Under the pieces are notes generated by a model that was not told where the DNA came from, searched no databases, and worked only from the letters and a program-made list of their open reading frames with translations. The translations under genes were made by a program, and so were the position numbers. This document shows positions 2,918 through 56,608 of a stretch of 64,000 nt of DNA, one piece after another (position 1 is the first letter of the stretch; each line of letters starts with the position of its first letter). Location: assembly GCA_029261035.1 (NCBI GenBank), contig JAJDCD010000025.1, positions 66,926-130,925 on the forward strand. The letters are read 5' to 3'. The stretch is from Candidatus Omnitrophota bacterium. Its GTDB lineage: Bacteria; Omnitrophota; Omnitrophia; Omnitrophales; JACROU01.

Positions 2918-3120
2918 GCTTTATAGCGGATCCTGAATCCTAAACCAACTCCACTATCCAACGAATGCTTTTATCCCTGATAACAGTTCTTATCCATAAC
3001 AATAAATCAGGTTTCGTTATTAATACAATAACGAAACACATTAAACCAAGAAACAATATGGGCTCGACGCCCATCTTGTTTCAACCCCTCACAAACCCAC
3101 CAGCGTTGATAAATTTAAGG

Positions 3121-3196
3121 AAACTAAAATATTCCCGCCGCGAGTTGCGCAGGCCACAGGCCGAGCATGTCTGAGCGCCGGGAACATTTTAGTTTC
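3121..3196. repeat. GC-rich conserved 40-nt core, ccgcgagttgcgcaggcNNNaggccgagcatgtctgagcg, closed by a 16-bp stem. Copy 1 of 2. Candidate structured ncRNA or REP-like element.
   Basis: It is flanked by aactaaaatattcccg / cgggaacattttagtt, an inverted repeat matching at 15 of 16 positions. It is intergenic between two GT9 genes. See the second copy at 22331-22394. Confidence 0.4.
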
Positions 3197-3217
3197 CGAC
3201 AACCCAATAAAAACACC

Positions 3218-4258
3218 TTATATATGAATAACCTTCTCCACCCCAACCCGCTCAACAAGAGAATCCCCAGAACCCAACCAACCTTCCCCCTCAATCCTCT
3301 CCAAAACCCCCACTGGCGTCAAATCATCCATCATCCCCGACTCCGCCTGAATAATAAGCGTATTCCCACTCCCTCGAGGCGCCGTATCCTTATAATCCGT
3401 AGGCCCAAACAAAGCAACAACATCCGTCCCCACAGCCCCAGCCATATGCATAGGACCCGTATCACAGGTAACCACAAAACGCGCTTTCGATAAAAGAGCT
3501 CCCAACTGCCCTAAATCCGTTTCCCCCGCAAATGAAACGGGATCTGCTTTCTTCGTATGCTTAATAATACTCTCCGCTAAAACAACATCACTTTTAGACC
3601 CTATAATTACAATCGGCAATTGGTATTTCTCATAAATCAAATCTGCAAGTTCCGCAAAATAAGACGTAGACCAACGCTTCGGCTCCCAATTGGCTCCTGA
3701 ATTAAGAACAACAAAAGATTTATTTGTAGAAAAATTCTTTTCCTCTAACTTTTTTTGAATCACATCATTCTCTTCTCGAGTTGGAACAAACTCACAATAA
3801 TAATTCTTAGGAATTTCCAGACCATCTGCTCTTAAAAGGTTAACAAAATAATCTGTTTGATGCGGAGGATTCTTTGGCTGCTCAATCGCATGAGTCAAAA
3901 ACATTCTTCTTTGTTTAGACATATAAGCAACCCTCTCTTTAATCCCTGCAAGCACACACCAAAAAGCTCTAGTTTTAGAAGGATGCAAAATATACACTTT
4001 ATCAAATTTTTCTTTTCGAAGCTGCAATATCAATGAAATTTTTTCTTTAAATCCACGGTTTAGTTTTTCATTAAATACAATAATACGATCGACATAAGGA
4101 GTATGATCAAGCACCCACTGGCAAACAGGAGGGACAATACACACAATTTCACAATTAGGATCATTCTCTTTAATCAATTTAAAACAAGGTGTTTGCATAA
4201 TCACATCACCAATCCAATTCTTCGTAAAAACTAAAACTTTTCTTCTTTTCATTCCCAC
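3218..4258 (-). CDS. GT9-family LPS heptosyltransferase paralog
   Basis: 346 aa. Motifs VLVFTKNWIGDVIMQTPCF and CDTGPMHMAGAVGTDVVALFGPT. Confidence 0.7.
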   Translation of the reverse strand: MGMKRRKVLVFTKNWIGDVIMQTPCFKLIKENDPNCEIVCIVPPVCQWVLDHTPYVDRIIVFNEKLNRGFKEKISLILQLRKEKFDKVYILHPSKTRAFWCVLAGIKERVAYMSKQRRMFLTHAIEQPKNPPHQTDYFVNLLRADGLEIPKNYYCEFVPTREENDVIQKKLEEKNFSTNKSFVVLNSGANWEPKRWSTSYFAELADLIYEKYQLPIVIIGSKSDVVLAESIIKHTKKADPVSFAGETDLGQLGALLSKARFVVTCDTGPMHMAGAVGTDVVALFGPTDYKDTAPRGSGNTLIIQAESGMMDDLTPVGVLERIEGEGWLGSGDSLVERVGVEKVIHI

Positions 4259-11995: not shown

Positions 11996-12901
11996 TTAAG
12001 CCCTAGGATGCGCTTGTTCGTACGATTCTTTTAAGCGCTTGGTGGACACGTGTGTGTATATCTGAGTCGTAGATAAATTTTGATGCCCTAAAAGCTCTTG
12101 AACACTTCTCAAGTCCGCACCTCGATCTAACATATGAGTTGCAAAAGAATGCCTTAACACATGAGGGGAGATTTCTTTTGCTAGAGAAATACGTCTAGCA
12201 TATTTAAGAACAATTCTACGAACACTTCTATCTGTAAGCCTCGTCTTTCCTTTATTAAGAAATAAAGCGCCTAATTCACTTTGATCGTCTCTTTTATTAA
12301 TATAGTCTTTCATTGCGTCCAAAGCTTTAGAGCCTACCGGCACCATACGTTCTTTCTTCCCTTTACCACGCACTTTGAGAACCTCGCCTAAAAAATCAAC
12401 GTCCTCAATATTGAGTCCCACCAGTTCACTAACACGAATCCCGCTAGAATATAATAACTCCAGAATCGACTTGTCTCTTTTTTCTATTTTAGTGTTCTTA
12501 GAGGGCGCCTCTAATAAATTGCTTATTTCTTGCTCTTCTAAATAGATAGGAAGTTTTTTATCTTTTTTAGGGGTAGCAATATTAACTGCAGGGTTCTCTT
12601 TTACAAGGTTTTCTCTGGTTAAGAATTTAAAAAAAGAACGAAGGCTCGCTAATTTTCTCGAAATCGTACTTTTGGAAAAATCTTTCTCTGATAAAAAGGC
12701 TAAATAACGTCTGATTTCCAAATAATCAATTTTTTCAATCTCTGTATCCTTGAAAAAATTAAAAAAACTTTGAAGATCAACAGAATAATTTGTTATGGTA
12801 TGACTAGAAGCATTTTTTTCTGCTTCTAAAAATGTCATAAACCGTGAAACCAAAGTTTGATGCCTATTTTTTTGTTTAACTGTTTTCTCTTTTATACTCA
12901 T
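11996..12901 (-). CDS. Tyrosine site-specific recombinase of the XerC/XerD family
   Basis: 301 aa. Catalytic-region motif HVLRHSFATHMLDRGADLRSVQELLGHQNLSTTQIYTHV. Confidence 0.7.
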   Translation of the reverse strand: MSIKEKTVKQKNRHQTLVSRFMTFLEAEKNASSHTITNYSVDLQSFFNFFKDTEIEKIDYLEIRRYLAFLSEKDFSKSTISRKLASLRSFFKFLTRENLVKENPAVNIATPKKDKKLPIYLEEQEISNLLEAPSKNTKIEKRDKSILELLYSSGIRVSELVGLNIEDVDFLGEVLKVRGKGKKERMVPVGSKALDAMKDYINKRDDQSELGALFLNKGKTRLTDRSVRRIVLKYARRISLAKEISPHVLRHSFATHMLDRGADLRSVQELLGHQNLSTTQIYTHVSTKRLKESYEQAHPRA

Positions 12902-22254: not shown

Positions 22255-22285
22255 AAAAAAGCTTAGCTCGACGCTAAGCTTTTTT
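22255..22285 (-). terminator. Intrinsic-terminator-like hairpin between ilvC and leuA
   Basis: The sequence is aaaaaa agcttagc tcgac gctaagc ttttt. It is a perfect stem with A- and T-runs on both sides, so it could act bidirectionally. Confidence 0.45.
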
Positions 22286-22330
22286 ACATTACTCCTCCTA
22301 CCCATAATTTAAGTTCCTAGGAGGAGGAAA

Positions 22331-22394
22331 GATTATCTTCCGCCGCGAGTTGCGCAGGCAGAAGGCCGAGCATGTCTGAGCGTCGGAAGGTAAT
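22331..22394. repeat. Second copy of the GC-rich conserved core with a covarying closing stem
   Basis: The core ccgcgagttgcgcaggcagaaggccgagcatgtctgagcg is flanked by gattatcttccg / cggaaggtaatc, matching at 11 of 12 positions. The core is the same as at 3137-3176 except for a 3-nt variable patch. Confidence 0.4.
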
Positions 22395-22426
22395 CTTGTC
22401 CGACGACGACCCTTGCTTAAATTCCC

Positions 22427-25946: not shown

Positions 25947-26189
25947 TCCGTAATATGAATAAATAAAAGTCTTTAAATTATCGTCAAAAAATGTTTTCCA
26001 TTAAGAAATTGTTTAACTTAGCAGAAAAGTGACACTCCTAAGGAGCCTATAAACTAGCAAGACATAAACGATGATTATAACAATGGTGTTATCATCTGTC
26101 TATAGCTTTCAGCTATCAACCGTTAGCTATTAGCTTTAGGTAATTTAAGTCCTATAACCAAAATTTTGCGGTCTCTTTAGAGAAAAGGT

Positions 26190-26223
26190 GTCATTCCCGA
26201 ATTCCTTAGTCGGGAATCCATGC
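26190..26223. repeat. Hairpin repeat of the gtcattcccga-N8-tcgggaatccatg family, copy 1
   Basis: 8-bp stem attcccga / tcgggaat. Same family as 63941-63973. Confidence 0.5.
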
Positions 26224-26285
26224 TATATAAATTTGAATAAAAAAAGGATCCTCGACACAAACATTCGGGGATGACAATTGGGAAT

Positions 26286-26327
26286 GTCATTGCAATGCAT
26301 TGGACTTTGAGCCGTGGCAATCTCAGA
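26286..26327. repeat. Solo copy of the 42-nt gtcattgcNNN...gccgtggcaatctcag element
   Basis: It has the same ends as the inverted repeats bracketing the GIY-YIG gene at 49265-49306 and 49612-49653. Confidence 0.5.
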
Positions 26328-28423: not shown

Positions 28424-28506
28424 AAGATCCTTCGCTTCACTCAGGATGACAAATAAAAAATAATTTAGAAGAAAGCTTGTCATCCTGGAGTATGGGGAAG
28501 GATCTT
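28424..28506. repeat. Nested inverted-repeat element with outer stem aagatccttc / gaaggatctt and inner stem caggatgacaa / ttgtcatcctg
   Basis: It lies immediately downstream of the giant gene. A related copy is at 54994-55060. Confidence 0.5.
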
Positions 28507-28567: not shown

Positions 28568-31500
28568 TTATGCAGCTGTGAGAAGGGCTTGATACGCTTT
28601 AAAAGCTTGTTGGAGTTTACTGATTTTTTCTCTTAAGGAATTTTTAACAAAAGTAAAAACACCTCTCTTCTTATCTTTCCGAATATTGTCACGCACAGGT
28701 TTCATTAATGGATGAGACATATCCCCTTCGCTCATTCCCAACAAGAAAGCATGCGGCAATGCATAACGATTAAAATCTGCTAACTCAATACCTAAATCAC
28801 TTAACTCATTTGAAGAAGGGGTCTCTAACCTTTGGATCAACATAAGATCAATCGCACTTAATAATTCGGACGAACCTACAACGCTCAATCTACGATGAAC
28901 CATCGCCTGAGTTATATTTACACTCACTTCTTCAAAATACTGTTTTGCCAAATTTAAGATTTGAACAAAATCTTTTCCTGTTAAATAAGATTGAAAACTA
29001 TCGACTTCATCCCCTTTAAGTATAGGAATAACAAGAATTCGATCATTAATTAGCTCCCCATTTTTATCCTTCAAGAATTTTATTTTATTTTCAATCTGTT
29101 TGGCTTCTTTATTGGTTCCATAATAAAAAATTAAAGACACTGTTTTTGGATTATTCGTAAGTAATAGTGACTCCGACTCTACATCAAAGTAATCACTTGT
29201 TTTCATAACAACAGAAAAAGTCTCTGAATTCAAATCATAGGCATTAAACACACGACTTTGAGTTTCCGAAAGCACTCGATCAAAAGAAACAACCCTTGGA
29301 GATTCAGCATCCGCACTTTCAGCCGCAAAAGCTTTTGGATACCAAGAACTCATAACAAGTCTGTAAAGAGAGCTCTTCGCAGAAGAATAAAAGGACAAAG
29401 GTAAAATGCGTCCCGAAAATAACTGTGCCGTTTCTCTAACACGATCCACAACACCCAAACTTGCAGCAGAAACGTCTGCTAACTCAGGGTCATTGGAATA
29501 AATAAACCCTCCTCCAGAAGTACGATTTATAATATTTGCATGAAACACCGCTAAATCATGCTGATCTAACAAAGTATGAACTTGGTTAAAAAAAACAAAA
29601 TCTGATTTCCCAGACTCCAAATCACCTCTTGTTTTATACTTAAATGCCTGAACCCAAGCATTTACCTCTGGGTTATCAAGGTCCACTGTCACAAACTGCC
29701 AAGAGTCACTGACCCCTGGTAAAAAAGAAAATGCTTTTCTGATGTTGTTTCTCATGTCCTCAAAGTCTTTCTCCAAAGGAGTTACCGTTCTAAATCCTTC
29801 ATTAGGAATATATTTTTGAAACTTGTGCTTAAACCCATTCCACTGACCATAAACACCTCCATCTTTGTGTCTTAAGTCTATGAATGGGTAAATAATCTCC
29901 CCTCTTTTAAATGCTTCTAACACACGAGTGTCTCTATCTAAAATATTAAAATCTAAAGGAATCTCTTCTAAAGACACCCCCTCCTTTTGATACGCAGTCA
30001 TCATCAAAATTAAAATACTTAAAGGTTCTTCAAATACACCTGGACCTATTAAATCGATGGTTATTTTTTTATTTTGTTCATCGCTTTCCTTTTTCTTTCT
30101 AATCAACTCTCTTAACTTTAAATAAAAACTTTCATACTGTTTATGAGTCCTAAAAAACAACCCATACCGACCCGTTCCTTCATAATCCAAAGGAAGGGTA
30201 ACATCACTTTCTGGCTGAACCCAATACAAACTAAATTTTCCAAATTCTCTTTTATACTGGTCCATATCCTTAATTCCATTCAAATACATAAAGTACTCTC
30301 TAAAATCATCGTACCCACTAGCACGTGCAAAGCCTGACAAAGCCTTCAAAAAACTCTCTGAAAAGATGCGTCCCATATCTAATTGATGTATAAATGTTGC
30401 TCTAAAAGCTAAACTAGAAAGCATATCCGAAATCAAAACTCCATCCACACTCCCTATTCTTTTCACTAGACTCTTAGACACTTGTATTTCTCCTGTTTTA
30501 AAATCCGTTTGCTGCTGTCCCAGACTAGAAGCTCTCGAACGAGCAGCATCCATCACATCAACAACATCTTTAATTGTTTCTTTTGTATGATATGGAAGCA
30601 TAGACATCTTTACAGAATATGTTGGATCATCCTGAATTTTTAATAAATAATCATGCGGAGTCATTAAAATTAACTCTGAGTAACGAGCCATTGCAATTTT
30701 TCTGCTTTGCTCAGCAAATATTCGGACCATTCTGTCTTCAGTATATTCAGAGACCTGCTGTAAAAAATTAATTTGTTCTTTTAAGTAATCAACAAGCATA
30801 ATTAAATTCCACAAAAAAGAAGGTGTTGTTCCAGACTCACCCCAAAGCTCCCACAAATCACTATAGGGACTATCCAGTATTTCTATAAACTTATTTTTCT
30901 CAAGCAAGTCTCTAAAAGCACGTCTAGATTCAACAGAATTAACCGCTTTAATAATTCCCGCAGATGTAAATCCTGCTTTAAATAGCACTTCTTGTTTCCT
31001 CTCCAAAATTTCTCTTCTATCTTCTTCCAAATCATTATTCAAAATATTACTATTTCTATCGTACGCATCATGAGCTCTTTCCGACAATGTAGCAACAAAA
31101 TCTGTTGGAATATCAACATAAAGCAAACTTGTAACTCTAGGTAACCAACCCATTCTAACCTTTGCTTCAAAGTATTCCTCAGCAAAAAAACTTTTCCACA
31201 AAAATTGATACACCCCTTTTAAGTCGTTTACATTTAAAAGCTCTTGCTCCTTCTCTTTATTCCACCCACTATGATTCAATAATCCTTGAACCAAGCCTTC
31301 TACAAAGAACTCAAATCCATCATATTTCTCAAAATGATGCAAACTATCAACAGCAGAAACCGAAGATAATAAAGCGTCACTCACTTTCAGTTCTTTGCGC
31401 CTAGCACTTGTGAAAGGGTATTCATAAAGCATTCTAGAAGCAAAAAAGTCTGTCAAAACAAATCGTTGTCCTTGATTTATAGTTATTAATTTTTCTGGGT

Positions 31501-34500
31501 TTGTTAAGGGAATACGTCCTTGAACAAATTGATATGCCAATGCCTTTCCATAACCATAAGCAGCTTGTTGCACCCATGACTTCTCATCCTTTTTTTCTAT
31601 TAATTCTCCTTCATGAGTTGCTCGAATGGAACCTGGGCTCAACCTTAAAAGATACCCTTGTTTATTCGTTTTGTGTTCAAATTGAATACTAGCAATTACC
31701 CTAACAAGAGTCTCTTTTTCATACCCTTCTAAAGTAAAAGTCCCATATTGTTGCAAAGCATCAAATTCTCTTTTAGCCTCTCCAGCCGTCAGTCCTCCTC
31801 GAATACCTCTAAAGGAATCTTCGTAATCATAACCGCCTTCTGGAGTCCCAACCCCTTTTAATTCAAGAAAAAACTCTTGGCCATTCAACGAAAAAATCAA
31901 AGGCATTCCATTCTTTAAAACAATTCCTGTCCTCCCACCTGCACGCGTACCAATTTCAGGAGGAGTTACAGACATCAACACACTATAATCTTCCCCAATA
32001 TCTTCAGAGCTCGTAACAAGAACAGCCCCTGATAAAAAGTATTCTTTTAAGTCCTCCGGAACCATTTCCCAATCTACGGATGTTTCCATACTAACTTCAT
32101 CCATCAGAGTAAATGCGAGAGGTATTTCTTCCACAGATCTCAAATCTGTCCATTGAGCCTTAAAAGTCGCTGAGTCAGCATTTACAACATTTCTAAACTC
32201 TCTCCCTTTAGAATACACTGGTTGTATTTTTCCATCTCCATCTCTTGATAACCCAACAAGAAGATCGCCTTCCTGTCTAGCACTTTCAAACCTCTCTCTA
32301 ACCTCAGAATCTTCTACACTTTCAAGCTCGCTCAACTTCTCAGGCTCTGGCCAAAAATCGATTTTCTCACCACTATTTCGCTGCCAAATAACAAGCCCTT
32401 TCTGTAGAAGCTTACTTCCAAAATCAGAAAAAAACCTCAAGCCCCCCTCAAGCTTTTGGTAAGCTTTTGTAGGAGAACCATAAAGCTCTCTCAACATATC
32501 AAGCGTATGAACCCTTCCTTGGAGTTTGGATTCTTTGCTAAAATATTCCGACATAGTTTCGAAGTGAATCTTAGCAAAACTAATGTTAGGCCTATTAAAA
32601 GCTCCTATAAGATCTTCTATATGTCTATACGTATCTTTATGCCATTTCTTAATTCTTTGCTTTAACCTACTACGTAAAGACCAATAATCATTTTGAGGCT
32701 GCACTTCTGAAACAATTAAAACAGGATTATTAGACGCATCCCTCGATACCACGACATGCATCCAACCAATAAGACCTGGTCCCTCTGGAAAATTTTTCAA
32801 ATCCACCTCTCCCAAAACACCTCTAACCTCCTCTAAATCTTTTGTGTATTTAGTACCCTTTGAATCAACCAAAACATACACAACCAACGTTGGCTCATAA
32901 CTTTCATTAAAGAATGGGAGACGATCAATGCTTGCAGACAACTTGTATTTACCTAACTTTGAACTTTTATTAATACTCTCTTTAACTCTCTCTAAAAACC
33001 TCCAGTTCTCCAAGTAAATTGCTAAATTTCTACTTTGATCTGAATTCTCATTATTCAAACCAAGAGAAGATGCATCTACCTTACTCAACACTTTCTCTCG
33101 ACTTGCTACAACAGGAAGGTCGCCATCAGTTATTGAAGCCTGATAACTTTGATAAATCTCTTCAAAATAACTGCTATTAGAAAATAACTCAAAAACATCT
33201 TTCGATAATTTTGGATCAGAAAAAGAAAAATCAAAACCTAGCAAAACAACATTAATTAATTGCTGCACCCTTTCATCAGACAATCCTAAATGAGATAAAT
33301 TATTACTCATAGAGTCCCTTAAATAACCAGCAAACTGATTAGCAACATCAATATAAAATTGAACTTTTCCTTGATAATCAATTAAATAAAACTGTAATTC
33401 TCCCTTATGATCATCAACAACCACCTCCGCATTAGGCCATCCTCCCACCTTTTGATAGAAAGAACCTATAACCTTCCCAAACTGATAAAAGGCATTATCA
33501 AGAAAACCTTCATCCCCTAACCTTTCTCTGTTAACTAAAAGCCATTCATCAAAACTAATTCCAGGAGTATAGTCTTTGATATAAACTCTAATTGGATCTT
33601 CCTTATCAAATCCAATCTGAACAAATTGAAGAGGGCGAGTTAAGTAAGGCGTCTTTTCATAATCTTTCATACTTTCTTGGTATTCCATATACGTATGAGA
33701 ATCCGTAACAGCCCCATCCACACGATACATAAACTTGTCTGTAGCTGCCGTTAGATAAAAAACTTCATCTGGGCTTCTTAGCACAATAAGGTCCACCTTC
33801 TTATTGGACCCTTTAGCCTTACTTAAATCTATGAGCTCAATATCAAATTCGGAAAGTGGCTTGTCTGAACCTCTAAGTTCAAGAACATTTTCAAGTGTTC
33901 TTAATCCAGTTTTCTTATCCTTTACCAATAAAGCAGCCAAGATGCTTAAATGTGTGTCATGAATACCCTCTAACTCCTTATGAGAATCATAAACTTTAGT
34001 TTTAGCCAATATCTTTTCAACCTCTTCATCAAATTCAACCCGTTTAAAACGAAAGAATCTTCTCGTGCTCTCCTTAACTGATTCTTTAAATACAAGAGTC
34101 TCTTTTAATTGTTCAACACCCAATGATTGAGCCTCTGAAATCAAAGAGTCTTCCTGAGTAACCACACCTTCCTTTTCTTCTATAGACATAATCTGACTAA
34201 AGAAGTCTTTAACCACCCTTTCCATTTCGTTCTGTAACGCTAAATTATTTTGACTGTAGTGCTTATGCTGTGTTCCTTTCTGTAAAGTCACTACGTTTGA
34301 CCCTGAATCAGACCGCACTTCTGGATCAATGATAAAACGATGAGATACATTCTTCAAACCAGAGAAGGCCAAAACAAGATCCAGCTCTTTAGCAGAAGGA
34401 TCCACTGAAAAATAAACAGAACCCACCCCACTTGGAAGGCCCTTCACTTTTAAAGAAACATGCCAATCATAACCTCTCTCTAAATCAAAAAGCTTAGGAC

Positions 34501-37500
34501 CTTCATGTTCGATTTCTTCTGGTAGATTTTCTTTTTTGAACAGATCTTTAAACCTTTGAATTAAAGGAGTTGGATCAATAGGATAAATAGATGAGAAAAA
34601 GATAGCATCCGAAGCCTCTTCTGCTTCAGACAAATCTAACTCTAAATTAATTAAAGTAACTTCTTCATCCAAAGCAGGAAAGGAAATACGTCTGCTGTCC
34701 TTATCAAAAGATAATATGGGTTTAAAGGTCTTCAGAGAATCAAAAAGTCTCGCGCTCTGAGAAGGATAAATCGGCTCTTCTGATTCATATAAAACATAAT
34801 ACGTATCATCCACTAATACATAAGGGTCTAAATTTTCGGAGGTCCATATACGAGAAACATTCCCTACGTAGGCTTTACCATCAGACTGTTCTCTTAAAAA
34901 ACGATTTAACTCATATTCAAACAACAGTTCTTCAGTGCTAACATCGTCTCTTTTCATTAAAACATACTGCTTCCCATCAACATCCTCAAAACTCCAATAA
35001 ACATCGCTCAGTTTTTTTACCTGGACAAAACCTTCAATTCCAAATAAAGGCTCCACTCTCTGAATAAACTCCCCTTCAACACCTAAACTTCGGGCGGTGA
35101 AAAATTCTAAAACATCTCTATTGGGGTGCTTATTTTTAAATTCGTTACGACCTCTAAAGTTAACTCCTGTTCCAGTTAAATCAACCACCTCTAACTTTAC
35201 TAAGTTAAGTAAAGCTTCTAAGTTTCGATTCTTCACATCTCTTATTCTAGCCAAATACAGTTCCTTCAAATTAGTTAACTTGCTAATTATCTCTAAATCA
35301 CTTCCTTTTATTTGAGTCCTAGTTAGATTCAGCACTTCTAAATTTCTTAGAGCTTCTAACTGTTTTAACCCAGTTCCAGTTACCCTAGTTCCACTTAGAC
35401 GAAGTTCCTTCAGATTAGTTAATTGGATTATATCCTCAAGAGCACGATCTCCAACTTCAGAGCCTATCAAAGAGAGGGTTTTTAAATTTAGTAAATTCCT
35501 TAAATAGTTTAACCCTTCATCCATTACTTGGGTTCGATCCATTATAAGGCTTTCTAAATTCGTCAACTTTCTCAAATGTACTAACCCTTCACCCGTTACT
35601 TGCGTATCTTTTATATCAAGATTTTTCAAACTTATTAAACCACTCAAATGAGTCAGCTCTTCATTTCCAATGTCAAGTTCACTCAGATCAAGACTTCTCA
35701 AATTAGCATGTTCTTTTAAATGCCCAAGCTCTTCATTTCCAATGTCATAATAAATAAATAAAAGAAATCCTAAATTTTTTATCCCTCTTAATTTACTTAG
35801 TGAGACATTTTCAAATGGTAAGAAACCAAGTTTGATATTTAGCATTAAAGTATCTTCTTCAAAACCTACAGCTTCTCTAAATTCACCTTGTTCATATACA
35901 GAAGGATTATTCAAATCATCTAAACGACCTTTTATATCCTCTCTCACCCGTGCTTTATATTCTTCTATCACCTGTTGACCTTTTTTCGTTTCTCTTATTC
36001 GTCGTATAGCTTGTTTATGCTGCTCATGATAACTATCTGGAAAAAGGATACCTTGAGCCCACCCTCCTTCCAACACTCTCATCACTTCATCTTCTCTTCC
36101 AAGTCCTCCCAGCCTATGAAGAACCATCCCTCTCAACCCAAAATTTTCTGGGTATTCGTGCAACGCTCTCATCATTTCATTTAATCCCATATCAGGGCCT
36201 ATACCAAGGCTTTGCGCTTCTGTACTTTTAGGCTCATCTTCATCATCTGTTTCAACCCAAGAGATATTTCTATAATTTACCTCTACATCTCTTCTTGCAA
36301 GATAAATTCCTCCCGCTCCTGTCCCGACAGCAACAAGCAATAAGAGTGCGGGAATAGCTATAGGCATAGAGAATAAGAAAGAAAACAAACCTAAGGTAAA
36401 CATGTTGATTCCTAAAAAGACAATTCTTTCTCCTCGAGTAGAGCCTGGGGTCAAAGTGCTTTGTGGAAAATCAAAATCTTGAACATCCTCATCTCCTAAA
36501 CTAGCTCCCACAACAGCTCTTCGATCTCTTTCTCTATCATCAAGAATGCTTCTTTCTTCAAAAGACACATCTGACATTTCGCTTCTCAACAAATCCTGAT
36601 AATTACTCACCTGATCGAACAAAAACCAATTACGTTCTGTTGGCTTTAATCTTAATTGTTGTTCAGCTTGAGCAGCTCGATATTCCTCAAGCAATTCATC
36701 GTACTCCAACAACTCACTCTCATCTCCTTCGTAACGAAGTAATGCTGCTTGAAACATTTCGAGCAAAAGTCCTAATTTCAAGTCTAAATGCCTCAATTGC
36801 TCAATTTGATCAAAAACTTCTTTTCCCTTTTGCACAAAAAAGTTTTCTTCAAAAATATATCCACGAAGAACTTCATAAGTTGTTTTTTTCTTTTTTATTT
36901 GAATAGGTTGCCCATCTACATCTCGTGATGCTGTAGCCACTGGCATAAGCATTCTTCTTTCTTCAGACCAAACACCCGAATTGATTTCGCGAGACATTGC
37001 CCAAATAGCTGCAGTCCATAGAAAAGGAATCAAAGTCATCAGGATACTAAAAATAGAAAAAATAGTTGCGTTTTGAATTGCCGCATCCGGGCCAGGGCCA
37101 ACAATAAATGAATGAATACCTATAGGAAGCAAAGAAAATGGCATATATTGAAATAAAAACTTCGTGAAAAAATCTTGAAAAAGTACAATTCGGTTCGCAT
37201 GTCGTTCAGGGTTTTGAACAGCAGACACAAAAGAGTATAATTGAGAAGACATGGCACTATAAGCATCCCCTGCACTTCCTCCATAGGCTCCGTGCCAAGC
37301 AAAGATTTCATCCGCCTCTTTTCTGTAAGATTTTCCTAAAGCACGAATATCTTTTATGACTTGTTTTACAGCTTCATTCCGATCAGAAGAAAGGTTCGGA
37401 TTAGAAAAAATATTCGCCACTTCACTTACTGCCACTGAGCGTTTTTGTATCGACCTCATGGATGGAAGCAGCATAATAAGTGCTGTTGCAAATACATTCC

Positions 37501-40500
37501 TATGGGGAGGCGGAATATTCGTATTAATAGCAGCATCCCTCAGAATAAGCACCGCTTTTTTGCGGTTGCCAATGTAGCCCTCCCGTCTCATCAGTGCAAC
37601 AATAACTTCCGCAGCCTGCTGCACCTGTCCTTCTGTATATAACCGCCATGCATCATCAAATTCTAAAGCAGGTTCTTGAGATCGCAATTCTTCTTTCCCC
37701 AAACTCGCTCCTTCAATTTGACGATCATCTTTTTTCTTCTTTTTCTTAAGCTTTATACTTAGCTTTTCTGGAGTTTCTGATATGTCTGGGGTTGTTGAGA
37801 TGGAAAAACCCAAACTTGAAAATCGAATAGAAAGCTGATCTTTATAACTCTCTATTTGAGCTTGCATCCTTGGGCTCTCAGTTTGAAACTCATCTAGAAA
37901 CTCATGAAATCCCTGTACATCTTGAATAATTCGATTTTTTAAATTAAGATTATCGAAATCATCTGCATATTTAAAAATAAGGGATGCAATTTCATTTAGT
38001 AAAATTAACCTTGAGTCTAAACTGTCCAGATATTCAAATTGACTCAATAAATATTTGCGTGACTGTTTATCGTTAAATAAAGATTTTTCTGATTCCCATA
38101 TCAACCTTCTAACATGGCTTACAATGTCACGATCAGCTAATTTGTTTTGATCAAAGAGCTCCTCACGAAGCTCTCTTCTTTCTCTTATTTTATTGAATAC
38201 TTTTTTAAGAGTCCCAACAATGACAATAAGAGAAACAAAAGATATCAATACATTGATATTAAAATGAGATGTGTAAAATCGATGAGGATTAACGTCGAAA
38301 AAAGAATGGTAAATGCTAACTAAAGGAATAATAGCAATCACCCAAGCAAAACTCGCCACTAATGCAAGACCTTCTATTTCATTAAAATCCCTATTTCTAT
38401 AAACTGTCAAAGGATCTTCTATTAAATGCTCTGTCTCAAAGATGAAATCGGATGTAAGATAATACTTTTGCTTATCATCTTCTTTTCTAATTGAGTAATT
38501 AAAACGATCTGTATTCTCCTGCATCAAATAAGTCCTCAATAAACGCTTCGCATCTAACCCATATTCTGAATTTGTTAAAATTTCAGCATACTGATCAATT
38601 TCTTCTCTCGATTGAGAAATTACGCCTTTCATCCCTTCTGTTGCTAAAATAAGCTCAACATAATAACGAGCTACACTTCTTCTCTTCTTTCTGTCTTTAT
38701 AGTAATACAGATGATGACTGTGCAAATATTCAATTATTTCTCTTTGATAAATATTTTCTGCTGGCAATGGCCTATATTCCAAAAGCAAATCCAAAGCTTC
38801 TCCATGACGTTGTGCTTCTCTTAAAGACCGGTGTCTAACAGCCAATTTATTTGCTTCATCATCTGTTAAATCCACACTAACTCTTTCTTTTGGATCAGAT
38901 CTGTCTGAATAATCAAACGGAAATTCATCTTTGGAAAACTGCTTACCCAAACTCGCACCTTCTAGCTGACGGTCATCTCTTACTTTTCCAGTTTTAGAAT
39001 CTTCTGCAATTGGAGGGGCGGAAATATCTCTTTGAATATCTGGAAATGGAATATCAGGAAATTGTTGAATTAAGAATTCCCGCAGGTTTTTAGATTGGTC
39101 TTTGATGGGCTCCGACACGGAACTTATTTCTGTTAAAAATTGATAAAAGGCTACAATTTCATTATTGAGCCACTCTACCAACAATGGGTTTTCTTTTTCT
39201 TCCGAATATTTAATGACGGCTGCTGCTAATTCATTCAGCAAATAAATTTGAGCATCCGTGGTTCTCAGTTTTTCAAATTGAAGTTTAATGTATTGACGAT
39301 GTTTTTCATCATTAAAGAAATAGCTGTCTGTTGTCCATAACTTCTTATTAACTGCCTTAACAATTTCTTGATCACTCTCACCTAAAGATTCAAAAAGAAT
39401 TTGGTTCTGAAGTTCTAGATAATTAAGATCTTTTCCTCTGTTTTTATCCAACATCATTCTAAAAATAGCAATTAAAGATATGATTGGAATTAAAATGGCA
39501 ACTCCTCCAAGAACATAATCCGATATCTGAGAAGCCTCTAGCAAAACACGAGTGCCTAAGGTAATAAAAATTGCTGGCATTGGAACAAGTATCCAATTTT
39601 GTTTTCTGAAAATTACATTAAAAATTGAAGGGTTTCCAATTTCTTCCAAGTAAGCTTGAGGATCTAAAATCATTCTAGAAGCATGTTCTGCATCTCGTGC
39701 TGTTTTATAATAAGGCCCAGCAGGTCCTGAACCATATTGACCACCACCCCACTCAACATACTCCTTATACTTTTGGGCGCCTTGCTCATTTAGTTCTTTT
39801 GAAAGCTGTTTCAATAGATTTGAAGCTGTTTCCGCTGAAACAGCAGACGAGATTAGATCAACCATTTTGTCTTGAAGGTCCCAATCATCAAATTTAGATT
39901 CTACACCTGGCAACAATTGAATAAAAAACTTAGCTGCTTTTCTTCGAATTTGCACAGGTTGTGTTTGATCAAACAGCAATGGATAAACTAAATCAAAACT
40001 TTGTTTTCGATATTCATCATTATCGGGTAATATTCCTGGAGAACGCGCTAATAGAATATGAATCATCTTTTCATAAAAACCCAATTGAAATAAACCCTTA
40101 GCTTGAGTCAATCGATTTCTAGCATCTTCGATACCTGCTACGGATAACCTTTCATCAAAACCAAACTGCCTTTCAGTAAGTGGCGAGTTTCCCATAATAG
40201 AGCGTCGACGAGACACTTCCTCTCCAGCCGCACCAGGATCAAAATCACGCCATTTAAGCCACATCTGCTCTGTATCTACAACTGTCAAATCCAAAGGCTC
40301 TGGATGCTTTTCATAAATCTGTCTAATTTCTTCTCGAGATACTGGAGTCTGGTAAAAACTAACATGCAATAAATTCTCCATACCTTCAATCAAACTAATG
40401 TCTACCGACTCTAAACCATCTAGATTTAAATCAATCTCTTCTTTCCATTCATTCAGAATAACTCTCTTATCCCACTCCTCTTCTAGTCCATTGACTCTTA

Positions 40501-42574
40501 AAATTTCTCTTACCCTCTCTTTATCTTTTTCATAAGATCCTAATGATTGGGCCAAAACAGCTTCTTCGCTCAACGGTTGGGTTTGGTTTTTGTTTACAAC
40601 AAAGGTAGGGCGAATAATCACAGCTTCTTGGATAGGGATTAGAATAGACTGATTTGTCAGTCCCAAGCTTATCTCTACACCTTTTTTATCAGAAGAATCT
40701 TCCAAACCTGTTTGATAATTCACAGTCAAATCTGCTTGTTTAAAAAGAACATTGGATTCCAAATAGCGACTTATATTTTGAACTAAAACTTCTGTATTGT
40801 TTCTTAAATTTGGATTTAAAGATAATTCGCGCTCAATCAGAATATTTAAAAGATCAATCACAGCATCAACAAGCATTTCCACTTGCCTTTTTTCATCTCC
40901 TCCTAAAAGTTGAATTTGTTTCAGATCCCCTACCATCCCAAGCACTTTTTGAATTTGGGAGGTATCAAAAATAGTTTTACTCATTCCCATAACAGACTGG
41001 TGATACTTCTCGTGACCAAACTCCGTTTGGATTTGAGGCTGAACTCCAACATAAGATATGTTTTTATCCTTAATCAATTCTGCTAATCCTTCGGAATGAA
41101 AACCTCCCGTAATTAAGATGGCTTTTTCTTGTTTCATTTGTTTCATTTGTTTTTGAAGTTGCTCAAATAAAGCTTTATTACGTTCTTCGGCTAATCGGTA
41201 GAACTCGATAGCATTCTTATAGACAGGTTTAAATGTTTTTTGATTTTCTAAAAGAGTTCCCAAATCTCTTTCTTCTTGGTTTGAGAGTTGCAGAAGACGA
41301 TCCGTCAACTTACGCACATCTCCATTCAAACCTTTCCAATCAGAGTATGACAATTCAAAAGCAATCAATTTCTTAAATAAATTCAAATCCTCACTCAGCT
41401 TAATTAAAATCTGTTCATTTTCGTTCTTAGATAAAAATTCATATAAATTTCTACTTAATTGGTTCATTTCATTAAAAAACTCAGGACCTGTAATTTCGCT
41501 CTGAAGAATGAAGTGTTCTGAAAACTTTCTTAAATTTTTATACGCTGAAAGATCTATTTGAGCCTGCAAACTTGCTTCATAAATAAACTGAAAGAATTCT
41601 CGGGGAGCTTTTCCTGTCGTTTCGTAAAGTCGTGTCACCAAAGATTGGTTGATCTGATTTCGTTTTGTAATGGACGTTAGCCCTCGAATCAGATGCTGCT
41701 TATCCCGCTCATCAAAAACTCGTTCTCTCATCAGATGAATTAGTTGTGTTACTTCCTTCTGGAGACCCTCATCATCTAACTCTCGTTCTCTATCTTGAAC
41801 ACGAAGCATTCGACACAGAAAGGGATATTCTTTTTGGTTTAAGGGTGAGGTCAATTCTATATTAAGAAACTCTTCTGCTTTTTTTTCTAAATAAGAGATA
41901 AATTGAATGAGTTCGATTTGTTTATTCTGATATTGCAGAACTTTTTTATCAAATTTTAATAACTCGGGATTGTAAATACGCGATTTTAAAATATTCAGTT
42001 CTCGGTCAAAAGAATCAAAAAAGGGTTTTGCTTCTTCTTTGGTTTGAAGGCCTTTACGGAACAAAGTGTAATCCTCTCGGTAAAGGTCTGTTTTTTCAAC
42101 TCCTTCAAAAAAGATACCTTCATAATCTTTTAGCCCTTCAGATATTTCCAAAGCAAAAAGTTCTCCACCTGTAACCTCCCCCTTCTGAGCTAAGGCGTCT
42201 GCTACCTTCATATTAATATCTGCATAAGGAAAAAAGTGATAACTACGAGGATCTAACGAAGAGGACGCTCCTTCTAAACCAATTAACTGATAATCATGTT
42301 CACGGACTAAGTAATCTAAAATACTTTGGATATTTTTCTGTGCTTCATAGTTCGCATGAGCATCTTGAATATGAACAATCACTTTTTCGGAGTCTGCAGG
42401 AATAACTTCTTTGACTGTACCTAGTTGTTGAGGTAAGGAGAGTTGAAGAGCACTTTGAGACACACTTTTTACGTTTAGCGACAATAGCCCCTCTGGAACA
42501 GACCATGCCACTGTAGTTGTCGTAAAGCAAATAAGCACAAAACTAGCTATAAACCTCAAGTATTTAAAACCCAA
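28568..42574 (-). CDS. Giant secreted and membrane-associated multi-module protein of 4668 aa, function unknown. It has a signal peptide, a conserved N-terminal domain, at least 4 TM segments, an LRR block and nine A-x-S-L-G module boundaries.
   Basis: A single uninterrupted ORF. The TTG start has an AAGGGAG RBS 7 nt upstream. The signal peptide is MGFKYLRFIASFVLICFTTTTVAWS. The LRR block is at DNA ~35155-35800. Confidence 0.85.
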   Translation of the reverse strand: MGFKYLRFIASFVLICFTTTTVAWSVPEGLLSLNVKSVSQSALQLSLPQQLGTVKEVIPADSEKVIVHIQDAHANYEAQKNIQSILDYLVREHDYQLIGLEGASSSLDPRSYHFFPYADINMKVADALAQKGEVTGGELFALEISEGLKDYEGIFFEGVEKTDLYREDYTLFRKGLQTKEEAKPFFDSFDRELNILKSRIYNPELLKFDKKVLQYQNKQIELIQFISYLEKKAEEFLNIELTSPLNQKEYPFLCRMLRVQDRERELDDEGLQKEVTQLIHLMRERVFDERDKQHLIRGLTSITKRNQINQSLVTRLYETTGKAPREFFQFIYEASLQAQIDLSAYKNLRKFSEHFILQSEITGPEFFNEMNQLSRNLYEFLSKNENEQILIKLSEDLNLFKKLIAFELSYSDWKGLNGDVRKLTDRLLQLSNQEERDLGTLLENQKTFKPVYKNAIEFYRLAEERNKALFEQLQKQMKQMKQEKAILITGGFHSEGLAELIKDKNISYVGVQPQIQTEFGHEKYHQSVMGMSKTIFDTSQIQKVLGMVGDLKQIQLLGGDEKRQVEMLVDAVIDLLNILIERELSLNPNLRNNTEVLVQNISRYLESNVLFKQADLTVNYQTGLEDSSDKKGVEISLGLTNQSILIPIQEAVIIRPTFVVNKNQTQPLSEEAVLAQSLGSYEKDKERVREILRVNGLEEEWDKRVILNEWKEEIDLNLDGLESVDISLIEGMENLLHVSFYQTPVSREEIRQIYEKHPEPLDLTVVDTEQMWLKWRDFDPGAAGEEVSRRRSIMGNSPLTERQFGFDERLSVAGIEDARNRLTQAKGLFQLGFYEKMIHILLARSPGILPDNDEYRKQSFDLVYPLLFDQTQPVQIRRKAAKFFIQLLPGVESKFDDWDLQDKMVDLISSAVSAETASNLLKQLSKELNEQGAQKYKEYVEWGGGQYGSGPAGPYYKTARDAEHASRMILDPQAYLEEIGNPSIFNVIFRKQNWILVPMPAIFITLGTRVLLEASQISDYVLGGVAILIPIISLIAIFRMMLDKNRGKDLNYLELQNQILFESLGESDQEIVKAVNKKLWTTDSYFFNDEKHRQYIKLQFEKLRTTDAQIYLLNELAAAVIKYSEEKENPLLVEWLNNEIVAFYQFLTEISSVSEPIKDQSKNLREFLIQQFPDIPFPDIQRDISAPPIAEDSKTGKVRDDRQLEGASLGKQFSKDEFPFDYSDRSDPKERVSVDLTDDEANKLAVRHRSLREAQRHGEALDLLLEYRPLPAENIYQREIIEYLHSHHLYYYKDRKKRRSVARYYVELILATEGMKGVISQSREEIDQYAEILTNSEYGLDAKRLLRTYLMQENTDRFNYSIRKEDDKQKYYLTSDFIFETEHLIEDPLTVYRNRDFNEIEGLALVASFAWVIAIIPLVSIYHSFFDVNPHRFYTSHFNINVLISFVSLIVIVGTLKKVFNKIRERRELREELFDQNKLADRDIVSHVRRLIWESEKSLFNDKQSRKYLLSQFEYLDSLDSRLILLNEIASLIFKYADDFDNLNLKNRIIQDVQGFHEFLDEFQTESPRMQAQIESYKDQLSIRFSSLGFSISTTPDISETPEKLSIKLKKKKKKDDRQIEGASLGKEELRSQEPALEFDDAWRLYTEGQVQQAAEVIVALMRREGYIGNRKKAVLILRDAAINTNIPPPHRNVFATALIMLLPSMRSIQKRSVAVSEVANIFSNPNLSSDRNEAVKQVIKDIRALGKSYRKEADEIFAWHGAYGGSAGDAYSAMSSQLYSFVSAVQNPERHANRIVLFQDFFTKFLFQYMPFSLLPIGIHSFIVGPGPDAAIQNATIFSIFSILMTLIPFLWTAAIWAMSREINSGVWSEERRMLMPVATASRDVDGQPIQIKKKKTTYEVLRGYIFEENFFVQKGKEVFDQIEQLRHLDLKLGLLLEMFQAALLRYEGDESELLEYDELLEEYRAAQAEQQLRLKPTERNWFLFDQVSNYQDLLRSEMSDVSFEERSILDDRERDRRAVVGASLGDEDVQDFDFPQSTLTPGSTRGERIVFLGINMFTLGLFSFLFSMPIAIPALLLLVAVGTGAGGIYLARRDVEVNYRNISWVETDDEDEPKSTEAQSLGIGPDMGLNEMMRALHEYPENFGLRGMVLHRLGGLGREDEVMRVLEGGWAQGILFPDSYHEQHKQAIRRIRETKKGQQVIEEYKARVREDIKGRLDDLNNPSVYEQGEFREAVGFEEDTLMLNIKLGFLPFENVSLSKLRGIKNLGFLLFIYYDIGNEELGHLKEHANLRSLDLSELDIGNEELTHLSGLISLKNLDIKDTQVTGEGLVHLRKLTNLESLIMDRTQVMDEGLNYLRNLLNLKTLSLIGSEVGDRALEDIIQLTNLKELRLSGTRVTGTGLKQLEALRNLEVLNLTRTQIKGSDLEIISKLTNLKELYLARIRDVKNRNLEALLNLVKLEVVDLTGTGVNFRGRNEFKNKHPNRDVLEFFTARSLGVEGEFIQRVEPLFGIEGFVQVKKLSDVYWSFEDVDGKQYVLMKRDDVSTEELLFEYELNRFLREQSDGKAYVGNVSRIWTSENLDPYVLVDDTYYVLYESEEPIYPSQSARLFDSLKTFKPILSFDKDSRRISFPALDEEVTLINLELDLSEAEEASDAIFFSSIYPIDPTPLIQRFKDLFKKENLPEEIEHEGPKLFDLERGYDWHVSLKVKGLPSGVGSVYFSVDPSAKELDLVLAFSGLKNVSHRFIIDPEVRSDSGSNVVTLQKGTQHKHYSQNNLALQNEMERVVKDFFSQIMSIEEKEGVVTQEDSLISEAQSLGVEQLKETLVFKESVKESTRRFFRFKRVEFDEEVEKILAKTKVYDSHKELEGIHDTHLSILAALLVKDKKTGLRTLENVLELRGSDKPLSEFDIELIDLSKAKGSNKKVDLIVLRSPDEVFYLTAATDKFMYRVDGAVTDSHTYMEYQESMKDYEKTPYLTRPLQFVQIGFDKEDPIRVYIKDYTPGISFDEWLLVNRERLGDEGFLDNAFYQFGKVIGSFYQKVGGWPNAEVVVDDHKGELQFYLIDYQGKVQFYIDVANQFAGYLRDSMSNNLSHLGLSDERVQQLINVVLLGFDFSFSDPKLSKDVFELFSNSSYFEEIYQSYQASITDGDLPVVASREKVLSKVDASSLGLNNENSDQSRNLAIYLENWRFLERVKESINKSSKLGKYKLSASIDRLPFFNESYEPTLVVYVLVDSKGTKYTKDLEEVRGVLGEVDLKNFPEGPGLIGWMHVVVSRDASNNPVLIVSEVQPQNDYWSLRSRLKQRIKKWHKDTYRHIEDLIGAFNRPNISFAKIHFETMSEYFSKESKLQGRVHTLDMLRELYGSPTKAYQKLEGGLRFFSDFGSKLLQKGLVIWQRNSGEKIDFWPEPEKLSELESVEDSEVRERFESARQEGDLLVGLSRDGDGKIQPVYSKGREFRNVVNADSATFKAQWTDLRSVEEIPLAFTLMDEVSMETSVDWEMVPEDLKEYFLSGAVLVTSSEDIGEDYSVLMSVTPPEIGTRAGGRTGIVLKNGMPLIFSLNGQEFFLELKGVGTPEGGYDYEDSFRGIRGGLTAGEAKREFDALQQYGTFTLEGYEKETLVRVIASIQFEHKTNKQGYLLRLSPGSIRATHEGELIEKKDEKSWVQQAAYGYGKALAYQFVQGRIPLTNPEKLITINQGQRFVLTDFFASRMLYEYPFTSARRKELKVSDALLSSVSAVDSLHHFEKYDGFEFFVEGLVQGLLNHSGWNKEKEQELLNVNDLKGVYQFLWKSFFAEEYFEAKVRMGWLPRVTSLLYVDIPTDFVATLSERAHDAYDRNSNILNNDLEEDRREILERKQEVLFKAGFTSAGIIKAVNSVESRRAFRDLLEKNKFIEILDSPYSDLWELWGESGTTPSFLWNLIMLVDYLKEQINFLQQVSEYTEDRMVRIFAEQSRKIAMARYSELILMTPHDYLLKIQDDPTYSVKMSMLPYHTKETIKDVVDVMDAARSRASSLGQQQTDFKTGEIQVSKSLVKRIGSVDGVLISDMLSSLAFRATFIHQLDMGRIFSESFLKALSGFARASGYDDFREYFMYLNGIKDMDQYKREFGKFSLYWVQPESDVTLPLDYEGTGRYGLFFRTHKQYESFYLKLRELIRKKKESDEQNKKITIDLIGPGVFEEPLSILILMMTAYQKEGVSLEEIPLDFNILDRDTRVLEAFKRGEIIYPFIDLRHKDGGVYGQWNGFKHKFQKYIPNEGFRTVTPLEKDFEDMRNNIRKAFSFLPGVSDSWQFVTVDLDNPEVNAWVQAFKYKTRGDLESGKSDFVFFNQVHTLLDQHDLAVFHANIINRTSGGGFIYSNDPELADVSAASLGVVDRVRETAQLFSGRILPLSFYSSAKSSLYRLVMSSWYPKAFAAESADAESPRVVSFDRVLSETQSRVFNAYDLNSETFSVVMKTSDYFDVESESLLLTNNPKTVSLIFYYGTNKEAKQIENKIKFLKDKNGELINDRILVIPILKGDEVDSFQSYLTGKDFVQILNLAKQYFEEVSVNITQAMVHRRLSVVGSSELLSAIDLMLIQRLETPSSNELSDLGIELADFNRYALPHAFLLGMSEGDMSHPLMKPVRDNIRKDKKRGVFTFVKNSLREKISKLQQAFKAYQALLTAA

Positions 42575-49180: not shown

Positions 49181-49264
49181 ATTTTACTTAATAGTGAGTC
49201 AAATGTCTGAGATTACTTCGTCGGCATTTAATTCAACTCCTCGTAATGACAATCTCTCTGAGTC

Positions 49265-49653
49265 CGTCATTGCGAGCATCAACAAAAGATGCGTGGCAAT
49301 CTCAGGAGTAATGGTTATAAAGTTTCGTAAAGATCATTAAATTCTGGATTAAACTTTTGAATTAACTCTAATTTCTTTTTTCTCGATCCTGCTTTTATTT
49401 GCTTTTCCCTCTCTATTGCAGTTCTAATATCATCTGCTACTTCAAAGTAAATTAACTTATCCAAGTTATACTTTTTAGAAAAACCATCAGTGAGCTTTTT
49501 CTTATGCTCAAAAATTCTTTTCTTAAGATCGCTGGTAACACCCGTATAGATTGTAGTGTTGTTCTTATTTGTTAAGAAGTATATATAACCTGATTCATCC
49601 ATTTTTCTATGCCTGAGATTGCCGCGGCCTTTTTGTCGCTACCTCGCAATGAC
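49265..49653. mobile_element. Candidate miniature mobile element: a GIY-YIG nuclease gene bracketed by 42-bp terminal inverted repeats
   Basis: Left arm, 49265-49306: gtcattgcgag-N14-gcgtggcaatctcagg. Right arm, 49612-49653, is the inverted gtcattgcgag-N14-gccgcggcaatctcagg. Both ctcagg ends face the ORF. Solo copies of the arm occur at 26286, 56561 and 57815. Confidence 0.45.
49315..49602 (-). CDS. Small GIY-YIG (URI-domain) nuclease of the UPF0213/COG2827 type
   Basis: 95 aa. Begins GYIYFLTNKNNTTIYTGVTSDLKKRIFEH, where GxIY...YTG is the GIY-YIG core. It is the size of stand-alone URI nucleases. Confidence 0.75.
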   Translation of the reverse strand: MDESGYIYFLTNKNNTTIYTGVTSDLKKRIFEHKKKLTDGFSKKYNLDKLIYFEVADDIRTAIEREKQIKAGSRKKKLELIQKFNPEFNDLYETL

Positions 49654-49677
49654 GAAAAACGAGACTGAGCCGCTTTT

Positions 49678-51243: not shown

Positions 51244-51296
51244 AATATCCTTTGTTTACTAGCGGTCAGCGTAAAGCGTTTAGCGAATAGGTTATC

Positions 51297-51333
51297 AAAC
51301 CCTCACCCTAGGCCTCTCCCTATCAGGGAGAGG
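51297..51333. repeat. Element aaaccctcacc-N5-cctctccct-atc-agggagagg. It contains a perfect 9-bp-arm palindrome and is nested inside an 11-bp inverted repeat.
   Basis: Flanking inverted repeat agcgtttagcg (51275-85) / cgctaaacgct (51358-68). A second copy in the opposite orientation is at 56451-56487. Confidence 0.45.
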
Positions 51334-51378
51334 GAAATAGCTTTTCTATACGCTCCACGCTAAACGCTCTACGCTAAT

Positions 51379-56599: not shown

Positions 56600-56608
56600 T
56601 ATCTCTGA

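Follow-up and report, generated by a model that had tools for sequence, protein, structure and literature searches.

The 64-kb window (the whole stretch of DNA analysed here) contains two copies of a GC-rich sequence of 40 nt, each enclosed by arms that pair with each other and that differ between the copies. An earlier note proposed that they form a structured sRNA or a REP element, which raises the question of whether this hairpin, designated here H1, works as RNA or as DNA, and what is conserved in it. A scan with the core pattern, leaving its 3-nt loop free, gave exactly two matches in the window, 3138–3177 and 22343–22382, both read on the plus strand, and none of 100 dinucleotide-preserving shuffles matched it. 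The two copies and their GC-rich core are thus confirmed: the cores are identical at 37/40 positions, with all three differences within the apical loop, and their GC content is 70 % in copy 1 and 67.5 % in copy 2, against ca. 37 % for the window average. The elements are assigned to the minus strand; in copy 1 the plus strand of the core reads CCGCGAGTTGCGCAGGCCACAGGCCGAGCATGTCTGAGCG, and the apical loop is the sole difference of copy 2.

The whole extended hairpin of copy 1 (3119–3197, minus strand; covariance-model score of 71.4 bits) consists of a 19-bp basal stem, with one transition mismatch and a 1x1 junction mismatch, and a conserved apical rod. Its arms, in which 3119–3141 pairs with 3175–3197 (23 nt at 91 %), constitute the longest short-range inverted repeat of the window. 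Copy 2 (22329–22397, minus strand; 75.3 bits) has a basal stem of 14 bp (AAGATTATCTTCCG / CGGAAGGTAATCTT) with one U.G/A.C position inside. The arms are therefore self-complementary, as first described, and somewhat longer than the 16 and 12 nt (15/16 and 11/12 matches) attributed to them; the mismatch beside the core that had been seen in both copies is also there, as a 1x1 mismatch at the arm/core junction. Each arm pair contains besides a single internal transition mismatch, A.C in copy 1 and U.G in copy 2. That the arms differ in sequence while remaining paired holds for all but their innermost 5–6 bp (TTCC(C)G / CGG(G)AA), which are common to both copies; outside them ungapped identity is only ca. 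30–40 %. The predicted folding energies of the whole hairpins are −40 kcal/mol for copy 1 and −33 kcal/mol for copy 2. Folding z-scores against shuffles, computed on segments slightly shorter than the whole hairpins, were −5.9/−6.0 on the two strands for the 76-nt segment of copy 1 and −3.6/−3.3 for the 64-nt segment of copy 2.

A scan of GTDB for the exact core pattern, covering one genome per species, retrieved one extra copy (L001, CAMARA010000018.1), from a gammaproteobacterial MAG, which is the only exact-pattern copy in that genome. Its core is TGCGAGTTGCGCAGGTGAAACCGAGCATGTCTGAGCA, with 33-bp arms containing two wobble positions, and the hairpin occupies the entire gap between the convergent stops of poxB and an aminotransferase-class gene. 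This 8-kb locus has 48 % GC, and its PoxB is 65–70 % identical to proteins from Legionellales, Berkiella and other gammaproteobacterial MAGs; the record is titled Francisella tularensis subsp. holarctica, an organism label that looks wrong. The same pattern gave eight matches in JGI metagenomes, seven of them by chance in GC-rich coding sequence and one real (L009), on a contig with 64 % GC, with core GCAGTTGCGCAGGCGAAGCCGAGCATGTTTGAGC and GC-rich arms of ca. 30 bp. The arms of L001 and L009 are unrelated to those of the window and to each other. Across the four copies, from three genomes of 37 %, 48 % and 64 % GC, the core is kept, the arms are unrelated and the composition of the arms is local. 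The window shares no accessory gene with L001 or L009, the only homology being that between PoxB and IlvB.

Other searches were negative. Two scans of viral contigs in IMG/VR produced nothing real, blastn comparisons of the core and of the whole module with plasmids and phages gave chance-level matches only, and a literature search for the core strings returned irrelevant matches only. A fuzzy regular expression and the covariance model identified no diverged copies in the window and ca. 200 kb of fetched loci; the model found, with filters off, only the two copies in the 64-kb window, and it found none in the other fetched loci. At gathering thresholds Rfam 15 gave no match in the whole window, nor any family at the four loci, where permissive E-value scans yielded sub-threshold generic long hairpins (e.g. 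miRNA precursors with 46 bits vs. a threshold of 95). The earlier note had set against its own proposal a plain repeat lacking compensatory stem changes, or a known Rfam element; instead, the L001 and L009 copies, from other phyla, have arms that are unrelated yet fully compensated, and Rfam had no match. H1 is a real structured element that is absent from every catalogue searched. Inspection and the Rfam scans also led us to reject an SRP-like RNA, group II domain V, a hammerhead and attC; a K-turn was discarded because the tandem G.A is lost in L009, with the adjacent helix mismatched, and a small peptide because the loop is 2 nt shorter in L001 and L009, shifting the frame. Another contig, L029, was an irrelevant chimera.

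All four copies can adopt a common fold, an extended stem-loop of 69–109 nt with predicted energies of −33 to −89 kcal/mol. The basal stem, of 14–33 bp, differs in each copy and is paired in all of them. The apical 34–40 nt form a GC-rich rod with three short helices, small internal loops and a variable cap loop of 3–5 nt; from the base upwards, the order is basal stem, small junction loop, YGC/GCR, GA/UC, UGC/GCA, a 3x2 internal loop, GGY/RCC and the 3–5 nt loop. The strong signal is the outer stem, in which 14–33 bp are paired from unrelated sequence of local composition in 4/4 copies. Two core pairs of L001 are changed on both sides (CGC/GCG to TGC/GCA and GGC/GCC to GGT/ACC); covariation in the core is not significant with four sequences, since 58/500 shuffles do as well, and the core is invariant in part because L001 and L009 were retrieved with exact-match patterns.

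The pairing did not point to one strand. Read on the proposed RNA strand, three of the transition mismatches in the arms (one in copy 1 and two in L009) would become G.U; three others (one in copy 2 and two in L001) would do so when the complementary strand is read, a 3:3 balance without the strand bias that selection on RNA would leave. As to the internal loops, the proposed RNA strand has pyrimidine-rich ones, and the other strand has the purine-rich, more motif-like ones. Additionally, stems of 30–33 near-perfect bp, as in L001 and L009, are what one would rather expect of DNA palindromes; among RNA helices under selection they are unusual, and as RNA they would be substrates of RNase III. 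The covariation read in the earlier note as the signature of a functional RNA or DNA hairpin is upheld in that pairing is kept through different arms; as an argument for RNA it is weakened by the strand balance and by these palindrome-like stems.

All 37 substantial ORFs of the window are on the minus strand. As had been noted, copy 1 lies between two GT9 genes and copy 2 between ilvC and leuA, by a terminator-like hairpin: the former starts 20 nt past the stop of a GT9 heptosyltransferase gene (3218–4258), upstream of the next GT9 gene, and the latter 32 nt past the ilvC stop (22427), upstream of leuA. The gap between stop codon and hairpin is 2 nt in L001 and 38 nt in L009, where the upstream gene is on the minus strand and the next minus-strand gene follows after ca. 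245 nt. The upstream gene runs in 4/4 loci in the direction of one and the same orientation of the core (GCTCAGACATGCTCGG...), and T-rich terminator tails follow that orientation at the window loci. Of the structured sRNA in the earlier note, the real hairpin with a conserved core is upheld; since every copy is situated just 3′ of a co-directional gene, a 3′-UTR element is as probable as a free-standing sRNA, or more so.

For the second GT9 ORF (1880–2917), the TTG start assigned mechanically at 2917 is probably wrong; the N-terminus of a relative (…RILFVNLTNIGD) points to a GTG start near 2862, behind a AGGTGGTGA ribosome-binding site, which makes the GT9-GT9 spacer ca. 355 nt long. In a related genome, both orthologous spacers contain runs of the heptad AAAAGCY (e.g. 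AAAAGCCAAAAGCTAAAAGCC) just before the start codons (L010, 11030–11111; L027, 10997–11061), and a short version precedes the GT9 gene in the window (ca. 2880–2895); these runs often pair with an upstream GCTTTTAGC. The window also contains two giant minus-strand ORFs, 28568–42574 (4668 aa) and 57893–63853 (1986 aa); at the position syntenic with the first, a relative has a counterpart of 3584 aa.

What had escaped the earlier note is that H1 belongs, at both window loci, to a longer module in which the apex of another hairpin is conserved as well. Along the minus strand, the stop codon is followed by H1, H2 and a terminator-like H3. In module 1, H2 (3092–3117, minus strand) is a weak predicted AU/GU-rich hairpin that pairs only as minus-strand RNA, and H3 (3050–3082, minus strand) carries the apex GCGTCGAGC at 3062–3070, where the plus strand reads GCTCGACGC, the minus strand continuing with ATTGTTTCTTGGTTT. 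In module 2, H2 (22292–22326, minus strand) is the hairpin CTCCTCCTA ... TAGGAGGAG, and H3 (22255–22285, minus strand) is a perfect 13-bp hairpin, AAAAAAGCTTAGC-GTCGA-GCTAAGCTTTTTT, with A/T runs on both sides and the same 9-mer at its apex (22266–22274). An exact match to this 9-mer occurs nowhere else in the window; its distance from the core is 68 nt in one module and 69 nt in the other. The H3 stems differ (ATGG/CCAT in module 1 vs. AAAAAAGCTTA/TAAGCTTTTTT in module 2). H3 qualifies as an intrinsic terminator by scan in module 1 and by eye in module 2; directly after H1, a U-rich tail is weak in copy 1 and absent from copy 2, L001 (in the sense of the gene) and L009. H2 and H3 are missing from the L001 and L009 copies.

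Just upstream of H1 there is a weak shared block, GGGTYGTCGG (GGGTTGTCGG at 3197–3206 in module 1 and GGGTCGTCGTCGG at 22399–22412 in module 2, both on the minus strand), which is not significant alone (52/500 shuffles score as well); local alignment scores of the module flanks alone were not significant either. Ungapped identity between the modules was 92.5 % in the core, 37–40 % in the 68 nt from the core to the H3 apex and 46 % in the next 82 nt, compared to 27 ± 6 % for random 68-mers of the window (99th percentile, 41 %). The shared H3 apex at fixed spacing, together with this residual homology, indicates from the sequence that the window copies are old paralogues of a diverged unit of at least 190 nt. 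Drift has altered the rest of the unit but has spared its core, the H3 apex and pairing in the two hairpins, which argues against a bare 40-nt piece entering pre-existing hairpins. Such a pattern, with a tip constrained in sequence and a stem constrained in pairing, points to a function and is as expected under purifying selection on both, although gene conversion could alternatively have kept the window cores identical.

The element is not general among relatives of the host. The best named matches of IlvC are from ‘Candidatus Omnitrophica’, and contigs encoding an IlvC 83–90 % identical have ilvC-leuA spacers of 58–92 nt, with no core; in the closest of these genomes, the syntenic GT9-GT9 spacer has 65 nt and no core, and the four-copy covariance model found no match in 42 kb of it or elsewhere in the loci fetched. 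With a GT9 protein only 51 % identical, these genomes are not very close to the host, so that the comparison establishes a lineage-specific presence and not necessarily a recent insertion. A search for empty sites, as expected from a core inserted into the loop of a pre-existing hairpin, found none among Omnitrophota relatives, whose spacers are short and unrelated and do not allow insertion boundaries to be drawn; at the L001 locus, relatives of that organism have different neighbours after poxB. The relatives each have a long hairpin of their own, of unrelated sequence and with arms of 20–30 bp, in the ilvC-leuA spacer (L012, 1766–1857; L013, 1094–1151). An intercistronic hairpin at this position thus seems to be a conserved need, and the hairpin seems to be conserved while its sequence turns over.

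The reading that we favour, tentatively and at somewhat less than even confidence, is that H1 is a structured RNA at the 3′ ends of mRNAs, whose stem is selected for pairing and whose tip is selected for sequence. With only four copies, we infer rather than observe that the module is transcribed, acts as RNA and binds a factor. The module, which begins 20–32 nt past the stop of a minus-strand gene and closes with the intrinsic-terminator-like H3, would be copied into the 3′ end of the mRNA of the upstream gene, or be released from that mRNA by processing, as a 3′-UTR-derived RNA. The long stem would provide a very stable, exonuclease-resistant structure insulating one gene from the next, and a putative trans-acting factor, probably a protein, would recognise the conserved tip by its sequence; the element would be gained and lost sporadically, with horizontal movement probable. 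This RNA reading is favoured by the position after co-directional genes, the closing terminator, the pattern of selection and the hairpins that relatives have at ilvC-leuA, and we also count for it the GC-rich island in an AT-rich genome. Against it we count the 3:3 balance of G.U positions, the stems of 30–33 bp, the pyrimidine-rich loops, the non-significant covariation in the core and the lack of H2 and H3 in L001 and L009.

Several of these adverse points fit better with an element acting at the level of DNA, a possibility that we consider doubtful but serious. H1 would then be a hairpin repeat extruded as a cruciform or in single-stranded DNA, its tip being the putative target of an enzyme for single-stranded DNA, such as an Ssn-type GIY-YIG nuclease, an HUH/RAYT-type enzyme or a recombinase, or else a small selfish element spread horizontally; its near-perfect arms would be kept or extended by intrastrand template switching and not by selection on RNA. 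The core is near-identical in three phyla, yet absent from the nearest relatives at both window loci, and the arms are very long, almost perfect and of local base composition, with wobble and mismatch positions divided 3:3 between the strands. The build of H1, a short hairpin with a free loop oriented by conserved non-palindromic flanks, recalls that of the NTS/SRM repeats, hairpin repeats that are cut as single-stranded DNA by GIY-YIG Ssn nucleases and provide a precedent for cross-phylum hairpin repeats as nuclease targets (PMC11893778).

The same genome contains a gene of the GIY-YIG type. A minus-strand ORF at 49315–49602 encodes a 95-aa single-domain GIY-YIG protein (Pfam E 1.3e-15), flanked by CGTCATTGCGAGG...GGCAATCTC hairpin repeats that are different from H1. 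There are three repeats around it (49207–49654), CGTCATTGCGAGG..GCCGCGGCAATCTCAGG at 49654–49612, an inverted copy at 49303–49264 and TGTCATTACGAGG..GAAGTAATCTCAG at 49251–49207, a locus that matches the repeat-ssn-repeat layout described for Ssn nucleases and NTS/SRM repeats (PMC11893778). At least nine more repeats of this TGTCAT-hairpin-ATC type are found at 26189–26324, 28424–28506, 54976–55057, 56560–56599, 57791–57830 and 63940–63973, so that the genome has at least 12 repeat copies. In two of them the flanks (GTCATTCCCG..CGGGAATCC) almost coincide with the Neisseria NTS, and at two loci the repeats form inverted doublets that resemble REPINs. Nothing in the window matched the regular expression published for SRMs, which for the TGTCAT-type repeats is probably due to longer loops. 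Two repeats (56560–57830) bracket genes for a Fic/DOC protein (56609–57214) and an HTH protein (57199–57690), a toxin-antitoxin-like pair that may have entered the genome as one unit. Finally, at 51268–51375, 18-nt local arms (94 % complementary) enclose the GC-rich hairpin CCTCTCCCT-ATC-AGGGAGAGG, preceded by CCCTCACCC, with the same nested build as H1 and a different tip.

The GIY-YIG gene with its flanking repeats, and this second nested hairpin, give more weight to an action on DNA. Nevertheless, the gene is 27 kb and 46 kb away from the two H1 copies and its own repeats differ from them, and H1 falls outside the published SRM consensus, without a GTCWY head. No nuclease or transposase gene is common to the window and L001 or L009, plasmids, phages and viral contigs gave no matches, and copy number is apparently low (two in 64 kb, and one exact-pattern copy in the L001 genome). 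The co-conservation of the H3 apex at fixed spacing and the residual homology between modules likewise do not correspond to fresh 40-nt insertions.

Cutting across the distinction between RNA and DNA, there is a smaller but not negligible chance that H1 is the recognition hairpin of an undescribed cross-phylum system, in which the 34–40-nt tip would be read by a dedicated RNA-binding or single-strand-DNA-specific protein. Such a system would resemble NTS/Ssn, though with a sequence that is new, and would pass from one phylum to another. If so, it would represent a new class of mobile ‘hairpin-tip’ elements residing inside host-derived long stems, or a new class of protein-binding RNA at 3′ ends. 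A tip that is a specific binding site would amount to a compact new module for recognition of RNA or single-stranded DNA, near base-for-base across three phyla, and would point to its partner protein.

A free-standing trans-acting sRNA gene, comprising H1, H2 and H3, with its own promoter in or just after the upstream gene and H3 as terminator, is unlikely. The module has the size of an sRNA (ca. 190 nt), ends in a terminator-like hairpin and has conserved blocks separated by covarying stems. However, there is no convincing minus-strand promoter upstream, the sole 9/12 site on that strand being downstream of H1, and the conserved sequence is almost wholly inside helices, leaving no obvious single-stranded seed. 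Moreover, the L001 copy fills the gap between convergent stops, with no room for a promoter, and neither L001 nor L009 has H2 and H3.

We consider still less probable that H1 is the sensor of a cis-regulatory leader, either a riboswitch or an attenuator, that controls leuA or the heptosyltransferase gene through H3 as terminator. The order on the coding strand, conserved structured domain, terminator and gene, would suit a leader, and the conserved apex of H3 is able, as read from the sequence, to pair with GCUCGGC or CGRCGC in H1. Yet the L001 copy, between convergent genes, has no downstream gene to control, and the genes downstream of the other copies are functionally unrelated (leuA, a GT9 gene and a gene for a secreted protein of unknown function). 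Energies of −33 to −89 kcal/mol also make H1 much too stable for a switch, and aptamer P1 stems of 14–33 bp are not known among riboswitches.

Chance similarity or an artefact of sequencing or assembly, such as an adapter or a fold-back chimera, is extremely improbable: all sources are metagenome assemblies, and in the probable source sample one short-read contig is broken within the core, but 0/100 shuffles match the core pattern, the locus was assembled independently in NCBI and Logan with identical sequence in the overlap (from the second half of the core onward), normal and different genes flank every copy on both sides, and the arms are short (14–33 bp) and not read-length fold-backs. The short arms and the ordinary genes on both sides also led us to discard PacBio, Nextera and other adapters. 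The short-read contig mentioned, from Logan SRR15505516 (L015, 1–27), has an identical leuA locus and starts inside the core; this break in the assembly graph could mean that the sample contains further copies of the core, or variants of it.

The preferred 3′-end RNA can finally be set beside known systems. Like integron attC sites, which are recognised as folded single strands, H1 conserves structure more than sequence; in attC, however, the base of the stem is conserved (R′′/R′ boxes) and the centre varies, the opposite of H1. The boxes RYYYAAC / GTTRRRY are absent, as read from the sequence, from the stem base in 4/4 copies, the window has no integron-type arrangement of integrase and cassettes, and its only tyrosine recombinase (11996–12901) is syntenic with that of a relative. 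A MITE does not fit, because the conserved part of H1 is internal, the outer inverted repeats differ and no direct repeats were found bracketing the modules. Like the RAYT-associated REP, BIME and REPIN sequences, H1 is an extragenic palindromic hairpin at the 3′ end of genes, and REP elements can stabilise mRNA and attenuate transcription. Nevertheless, REPs keep their whole palindrome and vary in the loop, whereas H1 keeps its tip and varies in the stem. The REP element proposed in the earlier note is a poor fit: the arms of H1 vary, two copies were all that the covariance model found in 64 kb with filters off, and only one exact-pattern copy is present in the L001 genome. Pfam scans of 27 of the 37 genes in this 64-kb part of the genome, and of the L001 genes, revealed no RAYT (Y1 transposase) gene.

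The NTS/SRM repeats are similar to H1 in the short free-loop hairpin, oriented by conserved non-palindromic flanks, and in being intergenic and present in distant phyla; they lack the long variable outer stem of H1. The regular expression published for SRMs (HGTCWY..hairpin..RNCYNB) did not match H1 on either strand; by eye, the H1 core has GTCTG instead of GTCWY, and L009 has GTTTG, without GTC. Another architectural parallel is offered by rod-shaped protein-binding RNAs such as domain IV of 4.5S/SRP RNA, also a long hairpin with conserved internal loops near the tip, which carry its function, and with a stem that drifts with compensation. There is no match to it in sequence or model, and H1, unlike this RNA, is not a single-copy housekeeping gene and is absent from close relatives.

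Orphan structured RNA motifs, the riboswitch-like candidates of Rfam, are GC-rich islands in AT-rich intergenic regions, and H1 resembles them in the conserved nucleotides of its internal loops and helices, the variable paired stem of P1 type, the few copies per genome and the scattered phylogeny. It differs in a basal stem that is far longer and more perfect (14–33 bp), in that no Rfam family comes near threshold and in its location after genes and not before them, with one copy between convergent genes. We would class H1 as a new orphan structured hairpin motif, one that offers a clean natural example of selection on the tip of a hairpin while its stem drifts fully compensated.
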